A DNA stretch of 64,000 nucleotides from Escherichia coli (lineage in GTDB: Bacteria; Pseudomonadota; Gammaproteobacteria; Enterobacterales; Enterobacteriaceae). Below are positions 1,773 to 54,071 of the stretch, one piece after another; positions within the stretch are counted from its first letter, which is position 1; each line of letters starts with the position of its first letter. The stretch is from the NCBI RefSeq assembly GCF_036507355.1, contig NZ_AP027877.1; one strand, written 5' to 3'. The translations under genes and the position numbers were made by a program. Under the pieces are notes generated by a model. The model saw only the letters and a list, made by a program, of their open reading frames with translations. It was not told where the DNA came from and did not search any database.

Positions 1773-2057
1773 ATGAAAATGGCCAATCATCCCCGCCCGG
1801 GGGACATTATTCAGGAATCACTGGACGAACTTAATGTCAGCCTGCGCGAGTTTGCCAGAGCAATGGAAATTGCTCCCTCCACGGCAAGCCGATTGCTGAC
1901 CGGAAAAGCAGCTTTGACGCCAGAAATGGCAATTAAACTTTCCGTGGTGATCGGCAGTTCGCCGCAAATGTGGCTGAATCTGCAAAACGCCTGGAGTCTG
2001 GCAGAGGCTGAAAAAACGGTGGATGTGTCGCGATTACGCCGTCTGGTTGCGCAATAA
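1773..2057 (+). CDS. yddM: XRE/HigA-family HTH DNA-binding protein
   Basis: 94-aa ORF from [11 protein letters not shown]; matches K-12 YddM by recall and by position between adhP and fdnI. Confidence 0.75.
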
Positions 2058-2085
2058 AAAATGGCGCCTTTTACAGCGCCATTTT
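2056..2085. terminator. Bidirectional hairpin terminator between convergent yddM and fdnI
   Basis: AAAAATGGCGC-loop-GCGCCATTTT perfect inverted repeat flanked by A/T runs on both sides. Confidence 0.5.
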
Positions 2086-2106
2086 CAGCTTAAAGTTCAA
2101 AAGAGA

Positions 2107-2760
2107 TTATATCCCTTCTTCACTCTCTTTTTTCGCTTCTGCCTTCTCGATTTCACGATACCAGCGTGGATGGTGTTTCTTAGCCCAGCGACGGCTCACC
2201 TTCCCTTCGATCATCCCTTTAATCGATCCTTTCACCCAGAATGCCATATACATATGGATCAGGATGGCGTGGATCAGGATGATACCCGCAGCCGCGTGGA
2301 TCAGCAGGCTGTAGCGAACAACCTGCATCGGGAAGTACTGCGCAAAGTACGGACGCCAGATAATCACCCCGGTCACCAGCAGCACGAAAATCATGCTCAT
2401 GATCGACCAGAACATCATCTTTTGCCCGGCGTTGTACTTACCAACATCCGCCACTTTATGCTCATTGCCTTTCAATACTTCGACAATGTTCAACAGCCAC
2501 GGAATATCTTTCTTATCCGGGATGTTGTGATGCACAAAACGCACAAACATAAACATCAGTGCGACGAAAATCGCAATGCCGAAGAATGGGTGCAAAATGC
2601 GTCCCATCTGCGGCGTACCGAAGGTTTGCGTCAGCCATTGCAGCGTCGGGAAGAAGAACGAAATCCCGGACAGCGCCACCAGGAAGAAGCAAATCACCAC
2701 GGTCCAGTGACAGGCGCGATCAATAAATTTGGTGCGCACAATCATTTTCGACTTACTCAT
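2107..2760 (-). CDS. fdnI: Formate dehydrogenase-N gamma subunit (cytochrome b556)
   Basis: 217-aa membrane protein from [12 protein letters not shown]; overlaps fdnH stop by 8 nt. Confidence 0.9.
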
Positions 2761-3637
2761 GATGATCCTCCTCGTCATCGTCCACTTCCTTATTCGGGCC
2801 AATACCGATGTAGTGGAAAATCAACCCGGCAAAAGTGGCAATAAAGCCAGCCGCTGCCAGCGGTTTCAACGCGCCTTTCCACAGGCTTACCGAGGTGTCG
2901 ATCTTCGGATCTTTCGGCAGACCGTGATACAGCTCCGGCTGATCGGCGTGATGCAGCACGTACATAACGTGCGTACCACCGACCCCTTCCGGGTTGTAGA
3001 CGCCAGCATGTTCGTAACCACGCGCTTTCAGTTTCGCCACGCGCTGTTCCGCCAGCTCCAGCATCTCCTTCTTGGTGCCGAAGTGGATAGCCCCGGTCGG
3101 ACAGGTTTTCACACAAGCCGGTTCCTGGCCGACGCTGACGCGATCGACGCAGAGCGTGCATTTATATACCCGGTTATCCTCTTTGTTGAGGCGCGGAATA
3201 TTAAACGGACACCCGGCAATGCAGTAACCACAGCCGATGCAGTTTTCCGACTGGAAATCGACAATCCCGTTAGCGTACTGAATGATTGCACCAGCAGACG
3301 GGCACGCCTTCAGGCAGCCGGGATCTTCACAGTGCATACAGCCGTCTTTACGGATCAGCCACTCCAGCTTGCCGTTCTGTTCGGTTTCGCTAAAGCGCAT
3401 CACCGTCCAGGACTTGGCGCTCAGATCGGCGGGGTTATCGTAAACCCCGACGCAGTGCCCCACTTCATCACGGATGTCGTTCCACTCCGAACACGCCACC
3501 TGACAGGCTTTACAGCCGATACAGGTGGAAACGTCGATAAGTTTTGCGACTTCTGCTTTGTAATCACGCACCTGAGAAGGCGGCGTGATGGAGTTAGTTG
3601 CGGACCTTTTGATAATGTCCTGCGTTTCCATAGCCAT
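2753..3637 (-). CDS. fdnH: Formate dehydrogenase-N beta subunit (4Fe-4S)
   Basis: 294-aa ORF with multiple CxxCxxCxxxCP ferredoxin motifs; synteny. Confidence 0.9.
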
Positions 3638-49370: not shown

Positions 49371-50777
49371 TTACAGCCGTTCTTGAATAAGTTTGCCTAA
49401 TTGTTTTACCGCCTGTTCTTCACGTTCTCCCCACTGCCACGCGGTATTAAAACGAAAAAAACGTGACCAGTTTTCACCGGTAGAAAACATTTTACCCGGC
49501 GCAATACTGATATGATGCGTCAGTGCCGCCAGGCTTAATTCGCCGGCATCTAACGGCTCGGGGAGCTCCAGCCAGAGAAAATAACCGCTGTCATTATGAT
49601 GAATTTTCACTTCCGCAGGCAGATAACGCAGCAGTGCCTGCCAGGCACGTTGTTTACGTTCCGCAAGCTGGCGACGCAGGCGACGAAGATGGGCGTCGTA
49701 TCGGCGCGTGGAAAGGTAATCCACCAGCGCAAGCTGCATCGGTGAGCTGGTGGAAAGCGTACTCATCAACTGCAATCGTTGAATTTTACGTGCATGTTTT
49801 CCGGCGGCGACCCAACCAATACGAAAACCAGGCACCAGACATTTCGAAAACGAAGAGCAATGCAAAACGCCATCGTGGCGATCCCACGCTTTCGCAGGCA
49901 GCGGTTTTTCCCGTCCAAAATAAAGTTCGCTGTAAACGTCATCTTCAATCAGCGTTACGTTGTACTGATTGAGCAACGCCACCAGTTGTGCTTTTTTTTG
50001 CGGCGTTAAGGTAAATCCGAGTGGATTCTGGCTATTAGTCATCAGCCAGCACGCTTTCACCGGATACTCCTGCAACGCCAGTTCCAACGCCTGAAGATCG
50101 ATCCCTTCTTTAACATCCGTCGCCACCGATAACGCCTTCAGCCGTAGCCGCTCCAGCGCCTGCAACGCACCGTAGAAACAAGGATTCTCTACTATCACCC
50201 AATCGCCCGGTTCAGTTACCGCTTGCAAACTGAGGTTTAATGCCTCTAACGCCCCGGCAGTAATGACAATTTCATCAGGAGAAATGGTGATCCCCTGTAA
50301 GGCATAGCGACGAGCAATAGCCTGACGCAGTTCTGCGTTTCCTGGCGGTAAGTTTTCAATCACGCTCATCGCTGTGGCGGTTTTGCTTACCTGCGCCAGC
50401 GAGCGGTTTAGTTGTTGGAGGGGGAAAAGTCGCGGGTCGGGAAAGGCCGAGGCAAACGGAACGACCGACGGATCGCGACTGGCCTGCAACATATCAAAAA
50501 TATAAGTGTTGATATCGACTGCTTCATCTCGAGTGACTGGAATGACTGGCGCTTTCGGCATTTTTATTGCCTGTGGCGCAACGTAATAACCCGACTGCGG
50601 TCGTGCGATAATATATCCCTGACTTTCGAGCAACTGATAGGCATGGCTGACAGTCATAAAGCTCATGCCAGAAAGCGCCACCTGGTCACGCAACGAAGGC
50701 AAACGATCGCCGGGTTGCCAGATACCCGACGCAATCTGCTCGCGTAATTGTTCTGCAAGCTGCTGGTATTTTTTCAT
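49371..50777 (-). CDS. ydcR: MocR/GntR-family regulator with aminotransferase-like domain
   Basis: 468-aa ORF; N-terminal HTH plus PLP-fold domain. Confidence 0.85.
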   Translation of the reverse strand: MKKYQQLAEQLREQIASGIWQPGDRLPSLRDQVALSGMSFMTVSHAYQLLESQGYIIARPQSGYYVAPQAIKMPKAPVIPVTRDEAVDINTYIFDMLQASRDPSVVPFASAFPDPRLFPLQQLNRSLAQVSKTATAMSVIENLPPGNAELRQAIARRYALQGITISPDEIVITAGALEALNLSLQAVTEPGDWVIVENPCFYGALQALERLRLKALSVATDVKEGIDLQALELALQEYPVKACWLMTNSQNPLGFTLTPQKKAQLVALLNQYNVTLIEDDVYSELYFGREKPLPAKAWDRHDGVLHCSSFSKCLVPGFRIGWVAAGKHARKIQRLQLMSTLSTSSPMQLALVDYLSTRRYDAHLRRLRRQLAERKQRAWQALLRYLPAEVKIHHNDSGYFLWLELPEPLDAGELSLAALTHHISIAPGKMFSTGENWSRFFRFNTAWQWGEREEQAVKQLGKLIQERL

Positions 50778-50855
50778 TATCGAATCGTAATTATGTGCAG
50801 ATGATTCGGCAGTCTATATCAGTTGTTAAAAATGACAACTTTTCGTTAACTGTAA

Positions 50856-51293
<438 letters not shown>

Positions 51294-51317
51294 GTCATTA
51301 ACCTTTTTAATTGGCGA

Positions 51318-51494
51318 TTAACTCAAACCGAGTTGTTTCAGGATTGCTTTACGCAATGGTTCTTTAATCTCATCGCAGGGGTGACGCGGCATGACACTGC
51401 GCCTCCCATGAAACCTGAGTTTCAAATGGTTGCTGCCATTCGCTACATCGACGCCCTGAGATTCGAGCCAACGTCTGAACTCGCTTTGTTTCAC
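51318..51494 (-). CDS. hicA: HicA mRNA interferase toxin (58 aa, GTG start)
   Basis: Hand translation gives VKQSEFRRWLESQGVDVANGSNHLKLRFHGRRSVMPRHPCDEIKEPLRKAILKQLGLS; below the 60-aa cutoff of the ORF track. Confidence 0.8.
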   Translation of the reverse strand: MKQSEFRRWLESQGVDVANGSNHLKLRFHGRRSVMPRHPCDEIKEPLRKAILKQLGLS

Positions 51495-51715
51495 ATCGCC
51501 TCCCTGCCGCTGAGTATATCAACAAAGTAAACATTAGTGTTTACCTCCGTGTGTAATTTGCTCGAAAATAGCACTAAATCGCCGCAACGGCAGAATGCAA
51601 TGCAAAATCAGGAAGGAAGATTCCAGAATTTCTTTGCGCTAATTTGCAAAACTGAATAATAACCTCAAGAAACGATCGGCATCATAGCGGCAAAAGGTAA
51701 GAAAAAGGTGGCAGG

Positions 51716-51946
51716 ATGTTTACGAAGGCGTTATCGGTTGTCTTATTAACGTGTGCGCTGTTCTCAGGACAACTCATGGCAGGGCACAAAGGACATGAAT
51801 TTGTGTGGGTAAAGAATGTGGATCATCAGCTGCGTCATGAAGCGGACAGCGATGAATTGCGTGCTGTGGCGGAAGAGTCGGCGGAAGGTTTGCGCGAGCA
51901 TTTTTACTGGCAAAAATCGCGCAAACCAGAAGCGGGACAACGTTGA
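51716..51946 (+). CDS. yncJ: Small secreted protein
   Basis: 76-aa ORF with signal peptide; synteny. Confidence 0.75.
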   Translation: MFTKALSVVLLTCALFSGQLMAGHKGHEFVWVKNVDHQLRHEADSDELRAVAEESAEGLREHFYWQKSRKPEAGQR

Positions 51947-52037
51947 GTCGTTTGATGCCGGATGCGGCGTGACGCCTTACCCGGCAGGCAATATCATGCA
52001 GATTCAATGAGTGGTGAGTAACCAGAAAACTGGCGTT

Positions 52038-53999
52038 TTACCCTTTTCGCTTCGGCAATGTTTTCAGCAGCTCATCCGGACTTACGGATGCCACTACGCT
52101 TCCCGGTAAAGGCATTTTCAGTATGTGATTTTTGATTTTGCCAATGACGTGCATCTCGCATGGGCGGCAATCAAACTTTAGCGTTAATACTTCATCGCCG
52201 TTAACCAGTTGCATTGGCGTAGCCTTCCAGCTTTTGATATTGCCTTTCGCCTGTTTCGGGCACAAATTAAAGGCAAAGCGCAGACAATGCTTGGTGATCA
52301 TCACCGGGACTTCGCCTTTCTCTTCATGTGCCTCATACGCCGCGTCAATCAGCTGCACACCATAGCGATGATAAAATTCACGCGCTTTCTGGTTGTAAAC
52401 GTTCGCGAGGAAACTCAGATGCGTTTGCGGATAAACCGGCGCAGGATCAGCAACCGGTTTACGGCTGCCGCGCTGGTAACTGGCAAGACGTGCAGCATCC
52501 AGCATGTCGGCGGCTTCGCGGCGGAACTGGTTTAACAGACTGTTTGGTACAAACAGCGCACCCGGCAAATTAATTTGCACATCGCGGGCGTAATAGATGG
52601 TTTGACCCAGTTTTGCCAGACCATCCTTTAGATTGTTCATTGCTTTTTCGGCGTTATTGGCTTCGTCGAACTGCCCGTCCAGCGTATGCGTGATGCTGAC
52701 ACCCTCTTCACTGGTGAGGGTCAGAATCAGTTGTTCCTGCCAGCCGCCCAGTTCAATGTCTACCGCCACCCGACGTTCGCTGGAGGTTTTTGTCAGTGCC
52801 TGCTGCCAGTTATGATCAAGATTACGGTTTAGTGGGTGATGCGGGCGAATTTTGTGCAAATCTGCTGGCATTTCATTGGGCCAGACGCGGTACTGATTTT
52901 CTCCGGTTTTCTCGACCGTATTGGCACGAAAACCGACGACTTCACGTTTAATCAACACGTTCAGGCCATCGCCATTTGCCAGTGGATCGGTAACGGCAAC
53001 ATCGAGATGATCTTTCGCCACTTTCAATACTTCGCCTACCGGCAGGCCGATAAATTTCGGCGAATCGAACGCGCCAATATCGCCTTTACGGGCATTCACA
53101 AAATAATCTGTGCTACCACGGTGGAAAGTCTTTTCCGTCGATGGAACAAAGAAATGTTCAGTACGACCTGATGAAGCGCGCGCCAGATCGCCACGTTCTT
53201 CAATAATGGCATCCAGCATCTGGCGATAATGGGCGGTGATATTCTTCACGTAGCTCATATCTTTGTAACGCCCTTCAATCTTGAAGGAGCGTACGCCAGC
53301 ATCAATCAGCGCGCCGAGGTTGGCAGTCTGATCGTTATCTTTCATCGACAGCAGATGTTTTTCATAGGAAACCACCCGCCCCTGATCGTCTTTCAATGTG
53401 TATGGCAAACGGCACGCCTGCGAGCAATCGCCACGGTTGGCGCTACGCCCTGTTTGCGCATGAGAAATGTAGCACTGACCCGAATAGGCCACGCACAGTG
53501 CCCCATGAATAAAGAATTCAATGGTCGCGTCCGTGGCCTGGTGAATCGCGCGGATCTGCTCAAGATTCAGCTCTCGCGCCAGCACAATCTGCGTGAAGCC
53601 AACATCAGAGAGGAACTTCGCTTTTTCTACTGTACGAATGTCGCACTGCGTACTGGCGTGCAGTTCAATCGGCGGAATATCAAGTTCCAGAATCCCCATA
53701 TCCTGAACAATCAGCGCATCGACACCGGTCTGGTAGAGGTCAGTAATCAGCCGTTGCGCGGGTTCCAGCTCATCATCATGCAAAATGGTGTTAAGCGTGA
53801 CGAAAATTTTTGCACCATAACGATGGGCAAACGGTACCAGCTCGGCAATATCTTTCAGGCTATTACTGGCATTATGACGGGCACCAAAACCAGGGCCGCC
53901 GATATAAACAGCATCGGCACCGTGCAAAATAGCTTCGCGGGCAATGGCGGCATCGCGTGCCGGGCTTAACAGTTCAAGTCGATGAGAAGATACGGTCAC
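52038..53999 (-). CDS. rlhA: U32-family peptidase-like protein (23S rRNA hydroxycytidine synthase, formerly ydcP)
   Basis: ~653-aa ORF; U32 family; start may be GTG at 53999 or ATG at 54041. Confidence 0.75.
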   Translation of the reverse strand: MTVSSHRLELLSPARDAAIAREAILHGADAVYIGGPGFGARHNASNSLKDIAELVPFAHRYGAKIFVTLNTILHDDELEPAQRLITDLYQTGVDALIVQDMGILELDIPPIELHASTQCDIRTVEKAKFLSDVGFTQIVLARELNLEQIRAIHQATDATIEFFIHGALCVAYSGQCYISHAQTGRSANRGDCSQACRLPYTLKDDQGRVVSYEKHLLSMKDNDQTANLGALIDAGVRSFKIEGRYKDMSYVKNITAHYRQMLDAIIEERGDLARASSGRTEHFFVPSTEKTFHRGSTDYFVNARKGDIGAFDSPKFIGLPVGEVLKVAKDHLDVAVTDPLANGDGLNVLIKREVVGFRANTVEKTGENQYRVWPNEMPADLHKIRPHHPLNRNLDHNWQQALTKTSSERRVAVDIELGGWQEQLILTLTSEEGVSITHTLDGQFDEANNAEKAMNNLKDGLAKLGQTIYYARDVQINLPGALFVPNSLLNQFRREAADMLDAARLASYQRGSRKPVADPAPVYPQTHLSFLANVYNQKAREFYHRYGVQLIDAAYEAHEEKGEVPVMITKHCLRFAFNLCPKQAKGNIKSWKATPMQLVNGDEVLTLKFDCRPCEMHVIGKIKNHILKMPLPGSVVASVSPDELLKTLPKRKG

Positions 54000-54071
54000 A
54001 TTCTTATCCAGTAGCTGAAAAATGGCGGCTATTTTAGCCACAAGCGCGACGTTGCGAAATAGTTTTCCCGC

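Follow-up and report, generated by a model that had tools for sequence, protein, structure and literature searches.

An intact K-12 allele of hicA, below the length cutoff of an open reading frame track, in an Escherichia coli chromosomal window

Identity of the gene

The minus-strand sequence at 51318-51494 of the window is almost certainly an intact K-12 allele of hicA, which encodes the toxin of the chromosomal hicAB operon, a type II toxin-antitoxin system. The window is the whole stretch of E. coli DNA that was analyzed, 64,000 nt of contig NZ_AP027877.1. E. coli hicA has been studied experimentally since 2009. It is the founding member of its family, its product has been crystallized and its mechanism studied, and in the window it occupies its normal chromosomal site. 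The first-pass annotation had described the gene as missed. This is true of the ORF track, which has a default cutoff of 60 aa; since the product is 58 aa long the gene is absent from the track, and it is shown once the cutoff is lowered to 30 aa. It is not true of the state of knowledge, as standard annotation has the gene, under the name HicA, in MG1655 (hicA, b4532) and in thousands of RefSeq genomes.

Direct reading of the sequence and the ORF listing give the same intact reading frame:

51318-51494, minus strand: hicA coding sequence, GTG start, 58 codons, TAA stop; encodes MKQSEFRRWLESQGVDVANGSNHLKLRFHGRRSVMPRHPCDEIKEPLRKAILKQLGLS

The sequence read directly contains no frameshift or internal stop within this frame, although lesions of this kind are present in other E. 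coli strains. All 177 nt, including the GTG, are 100% identical to MG1655 b4532 (NC_000913.3, 1509286-1509462). The protein is identical at 58 of 58 residues to chain A of PDB entry 6HPB ('mRNA interferase toxin HicA'). On sequence grounds the match to K-12 hicA is far beyond chance, since both the gene and a crystallized protein are 100% identical. The Pfam family HicA_toxin (PF07927) is matched at residues 5-57 and profile positions 3-58 of 58, with 30.9 bits against a gathering cutoff of 27 (E=3e-07), a score that is only modestly over the threshold. The exact HicA sequence is found on at least 1000 contigs under the NCBI/UniRef name 'type II toxin-antitoxin system mRNA interferase toxin HicA'. 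The proposal of a 58-aa HicA with a GTG start is thus borne out by the ORF listing, the nucleotide identity to K-12, the 6HPB chain and Pfam together.

Two other libraries gave blanks. An NCBIfam scan of HicA and HicB at E<=0.01 matched no family. In a PADLOC scan the HicA model was without a match and HicB had only weak helix-turn-helix-type matches, a result that is neutral on a role in defence. These blanks are gaps in library coverage or in sensitivity for a very short protein and do not contradict the assignment. An explanation of the region as a non-coding RNA was also considered, and it was rejected because an Rfam search of both strands of 50000-53000 gave no match within hicA or antisense to it.

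Translation start

An in-frame TGA at 51519-51521 lies nine codons 5' of the GTG, and there is no ATG, GTG or TTG between them. The GTG at 51494 is therefore the 5'-most possible start of hicA. The next in-frame candidates are a TTG at codon 24 and an ATG at codon 35, both of which are past His23 and would lose half of the domain. As read, the GTG is the only start that would give a complete domain. The features around the start are:

51499-51503, minus strand: Shine-Dalgarno sequence GGAGG, 4 nt 5' of the GTG

51491-51496, minus strand: ATGTGA start context, in which an out-of-frame ATG 2 nt 5' of the GTG is followed directly by TGA, a minimal 'start-stop'

51426-51428, minus strand: codon 23 (CAT), His23, as read from the sequence

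The Shine-Dalgarno sequence, the ATGTGA and the first codons of hicA are invariant across six aligned alleles. The gene is among 18 E. coli genes annotated with the GTG start of an ATGTG (Kohl et al. 2022, PMC9841429), and Table 2 of that study gives it the Shine-Dalgarno sequence GGAGG, a DtoStart of 12 and no predicted ambiguity of the start site.

Translation from another start, which would leave no 58-aa product, is very improbable. It would have to begin either at the ATG of 51496, which codes for a methionine followed by a stop, or at the internal TTG24 or ATG35. An ATGTG context in principle allows initiation at either codon, with AUG the intrinsically stronger one (PMC9841429), and GTG starts are a minority class. 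However, the spacing favors the GTG: in the framework of the same study the ATG two bases upstream has a DtoStart of 10, farther than the GTG (12) from the optimum of about 13-14, and its authors predict no ambiguity for hicA. The ATG frame ends immediately at the TGA. The internal starts have no obvious Shine-Dalgarno sequence and would remove His23 and half of the domain that Pfam places at residues 5-57. In addition, the 58-aa protein is the form that was crystallized with HicB, and the GTG and its context do not vary in any of the alleles compared. A literature search for start-site profiling of hicA itself found none.

The ATG-TGA start-stop at 51491-51496 could conceivably throttle the translation of the toxin, although this is unlikely. 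By analogy, some ribosomes would start on the AUG, stop at the UGA, and then either leave or reinitiate on the GUG. If so, toxin synthesis would be low relative to that of HicB, and a translational layer would lie atop the two-promoter control of the operon. Termination-reinitiation at such a start-stop has been demonstrated for narQ, whereas for hicA the same authors predict it to be unnecessary (PMC9841429).

The operon and its neighbors

The gene order ydcR, hicB, hicA, then the divergent yncJ, then rlhA is common to the window, MG1655 and strain 2013C-4991. Over the 4.8 kb around hicA the window and MG1655 are 99.06% identical, differing by 45 substitutions without gaps. These differences place the window in an E. 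coli strain other than K-12, and none of them falls in hicA or its leader: MG1655 hicA (b4532, formerly yncN; PDB 6HPB) has the same coding sequence, GTG, 221-bp leader, HicB protein and neighbors. In MG1655 the genes are numbered b1436 (yncJ), b4532 (hicA) and b1438 (hicB), and the b-number series suggests that hicA was added after the original numbering.

50856-51293, minus strand: hicB, antitoxin, 145 aa from the ATG at 51293; the RefSeq/UniProt ATG at 51272 gives 138 aa

The hicB gene differs from that of MG1655 by two synonymous changes, at 51075 and 51192, and the HicB protein is identical. It carries the Pfam domains HicB_lk_antitox (PF15919) and HTH_3, in line with the E. coli type of HicB, in which a partial RNase H-like domain at the N-terminus is joined to a C-terminal domain that binds DNA. 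It is identical to the PDB chains named 'Antitoxin HicB', 6HPB_B and 6HPC in the 138-aa form and 6U0I_A in the 145-aa form. The hicA gene had been placed immediately upstream of hicB, and this agrees with the same-strand gap between the hicA stop and hicB, which is 24 nt to the ATG at 51293 or 45 nt to the RefSeq start at 51272.

The start of hicB itself is ambiguous. The ATG at 51293 (145 aa, MRETVEIMRYP..) is preceded by AAAAAGG, while RefSeq and UniProt prefer 51272. Both forms have been crystallized, and their database clusters have 1372 and 664 members. The hicA-hicB spacer also contains a sigma-70-like ATGACA-16-AATTAT (9/12) at 51271-51298 on the minus strand, just 5' of the 138-aa hicB start. 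This match may be due to chance, as the region has four such sites against 2.2 +/- 1.3 in shuffled sequence.

There are further observations on the neighboring genes. The rlhA ORF (52038-54041, minus strand) has 667 aa from a GTG start, and RefSeq gives 653 aa (1962 nt) with the start 14 codons inward. The gene is also among those with the GTG start of an ATGTG, with a weak Shine-Dalgarno sequence UAAG and a DtoStart of 7 (Kohl et al. 2022, PMC9841429). The yncJ gene (DUF2554) differs from that of both K-12 and 2013C-4991 at 51757 and 51763 in its 5' part, a small divergent patch amid a near-identical stretch. Between yncJ and rlhA, a GC-rich palindromic sequence at 51950-51986 resembles a REP-type element. 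On the minus strand it gives a sub-threshold Rfam match to naRNA4, with 26.7 bits against a gathering score of 59.5 (E=0.056).

Leader and promoters

The hicAB operon is described as having a toxin-first (reverse) order and two promoters, P1 and P2 (PMC11594946, PMC8138530, PMC6957337). HicB dimers bind the operator hicO, which is an inverted repeat (PMC10865869). The 221 bp upstream of hicA are identical to K-12; therefore, whatever has been mapped in the K-12 leader applies here. The leader contains:

51513-51521, minus strand: extended -10-like TGATATACT, found as a pattern match, with its 3' end 18 nt 5' of the GTG; invariant in six alleles

51527-51544, palindromic: perfect inverted repeat GTAAACA-N4-TGTTTAC (7+7), found by a repeat search; candidate hicO

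51545-51715, minus strand: rest of the yncJ-hicA intergenic region, K-12-identical and, according to the literature, expected to hold P1 (CRP-S/Sxy dependent)

The arms of the inverted repeat are invariant in the six alleles, and the sole change is in the spacer. From secondary descriptions of the operon, the repeat is a candidate for the HicB operator hicO. The TGATATACT element sits five bases downstream of the repeat, and its first three bases double as the in-frame TGA that bounds the hicA frame on the 5' side. It is a candidate -10 element of P2. A transcript starting 6-8 nt past this element would begin 2-4 bases before the Shine-Dalgarno sequence, which fits the description of P2.

The scans of the region were negative. 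A generic sigma-70 and terminator scan called no promoter upstream of hicA and no terminators, with four promoter-like sites against 2.2 expected. A CRP-S scan of the whole window with three mismatches gave 256 matches against 287 expected, which is the chance level. A local CRP-S scan of the hicA leader gave no convincing site; the best match was 7/10 and was equaled in 75% of shuffles. Cameron & Redfield 2006 does not mention the hicA locus. Since the scans flagged no promoter and no CRP-S site, the assignments of P2 and P1 rest on the literature and on reading of the sequence. The sole perfect match to the CRP-S core TGCGA-N6-TCGCA in the 64-kb window is at 2560-2575 (TGCGACGAAAATCGCA). It lies inside an ORF of 273 aa (2023-2844, plus strand) and is probably a chance intragenic match.

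Among the diverged alleles the leader (51495-51720) is more conserved than hicA itself, with 5 variable positions in 241 aligned columns against 14 sites in 177 nt in this small sample. All five variable columns are upstream of the hicA start codon. Such conservation might stem from a high density of regulatory elements or from the history of recombination.

Expected function

What the product does can be described from studies of K-12 HicA, which has the same sequence. The 58 residues form a single domain with a dsRBD-like fold, as described for the 6HPB structure (PMC10865869). Ectopic production of HicA stops translation and growth, with cleavage of mRNA that does not need the ribosome (PMC11594946, PMC10865869). 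The ribosome-independent mRNA cleavage and the bacteriostatic toxicity of K-12 HicA were reported by Jorgensen et al. 2009, as cited in PMC11594946. No catalytic residue of E. coli HicA is known apart from His23, which HicB covers in the complex (PMC8138530; also PMC11594946). In the present comparison His23 is kept in all of the diverged alleles. A phmmer search against the PDB at E<=10 for other solved HicAs, and for the histidine column, returned only the identical 6HPB chain. Because the HicA family is too diverged for a single-sequence search, the His23 assignment rests on the literature.

The enzymatic and regulatory behavior of the hicAB of the window is carried over from these K-12 studies of the same sequence. 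By analogy with K-12, HicA would cleave mRNAs via His23 and so arrest translation and growth. HicB would bind HicA 1:1 and mask His23, and its C-terminal helix-turn-helix would repress P2 at the inverted-repeat operator just 5' of hicA. The distal P1 (CRP-S/Sxy dependent) would give the full hicAB mRNA. When HicA exceeds HicB, P2 would be derepressed, and the shortened transcript would yield only HicB until the balance is restored.

Toxin loss in other genomes

A survey of 5426 complete E. coli genomes, 5415 of which have the flanks, found a hicA match in 4253. About 1160 of the 5426 have no hicA. They carry a 444-bp deletion that corresponds to 51095-51538 of the window (locus L007). The deletion takes in part of the inverted repeat, all of hicA and the first ~200 nt of hicB, leaving a hicB C-terminal pseudogene, and is found in ~21% of genomes. 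A second lesion (loci L003, L008 and L009), which affects a sizeable minority of the genomes with a hicA match, removes 22 bp between TGCG microhomologies, hicA nt 118-139 (window 51356-51377). The toxin frame is shifted as a result, PGAP labels the gene 'mRNA interferase, frameshifted', and hicB remains intact. Even-step sampling found this allele in 5-6 of 30 rows, which puts its frequency at ~15-20% of complete genomes. An exact 50-nt junction query gave 203 genomes, which is a lower bound; the count is too low because in most deletion alleles an SNP lies 3 nt from the junction and interrupts the 28-nt seed. An intact hicA is kept in ~60% of complete E. coli genomes and the window belongs to that majority.

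Given these losses, hicA in the window could be a decaying pseudogene or functionally silent, a state found in many other E. coli lineages, and HicA has a very low reported abundance in K-12, 0.021 ppm (PMC9841429). The chance of this is nevertheless very slight, below even that of another start. The allele has neither deletion, and it is identical to the K-12 allele that is reported to be toxic and RNA-cleaving. The hicB gene beside it is intact and the upstream region does not differ from K-12. The low steady-state abundance is what is expected of a tightly controlled toxin.

Coding strand

The reading frame opposite hicA is the longer of the two:

51333-51530, plus strand: 65-aa antisense ORF, a shadow ORF and not a gene

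This ORF had been called antisense to hicA in the first-pass annotation; it does exist on the plus strand and overlaps hicA over 51333-51494. The two frames were compared using the hicA of the window and three diverged intact E. coli alleles (L004-L006) with 94-97% identity. In the hicA frame, 11 of 14 variable sites are at codon position 3. The amino acid changes number 2-3 per allele and are mostly conservative (H29Q, C40S, D41E, S58N). In the frame of the 65-aa ORF, 10 of 12 variable sites are at codon position 1, each allele has 5-6 amino acid changes, and in L006 a stop codon interrupts the ORF in the middle. The pattern of codon positions and the stop in L006 therefore indicate selection on the hicA frame, with the longer ORF as its shadow.

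The converse, in which the 65-aa ORF is the real gene and the 58-aa minus-strand frame an accidental shadow, is the least probable of the alternatives and is effectively refuted by these data. The 65-aa ORF is the only one of the two that passes the 60-aa cutoff, and it has been deposited as a 'hypothetical protein' in EDL933 (O157:H7; AAG56338.1), SE11 (BAG77043.1) and Shigella dysenteriae Sd197 (ABB61855.1). However, it matches no Pfam family, current RefSeq annotations omit it, and its protein cluster numbers 14 members, whereas that of HicA has 245; the exact HicA sequence is also the widespread one noted above. The frame opposite it is that of the crystallized protein. The shadow ORF is also annotated in O55:H7 CB9615 and in 53638; these older records are an error of length bias.

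Relation to other systems

The HicA proteins of Burkholderia pseudomallei, Yersinia pestis (HicA3), Sinorhizobium meliloti and Streptococcus pneumoniae belong to the same Pfam family and are likewise small, with a single dsRBD-like domain. They also have a catalytic histidine in the first beta-strand region that is masked by HicB. They have diverged so far in sequence that phmmer does not connect them with HicA of the window, even at E<=10 against the PDB. Their HicB partners are mostly ribbon-helix-helix proteins, whereas E. coli HicB is a helix-turn-helix protein. The two-promoter scheme of hicAB has been shown only for E. coli (PMC11594946).

In regulation, hicAB resembles Haemophilus influenzae toxTA and mqsRA, which likewise have the toxin gene before the antitoxin gene and two promoters. 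Modules of this type share with hicAB a CRP-S/Sxy upstream promoter and an antitoxin-repressed downstream promoter with an antitoxin-only output (PMC8138530, PMC6957337). The protein families of toxTA and hicAB are unrelated, as ToxT is RelE/ParE-like, so this likeness is regulatory only.

Significance

The biological weight of this finding is small, since this copy of hicA is identical to the studied K-12 gene. The case bears on annotation. Real small genes, for example the toxins of toxin-antitoxin modules, go unlisted under a 60-aa ORF cutoff. The same cutoff can favor a longer antisense shadow ORF, and several early public annotations of the hicA locus erred in this way. The codon-position test on diverged alleles is a cheap way to settle such sense/antisense cases.
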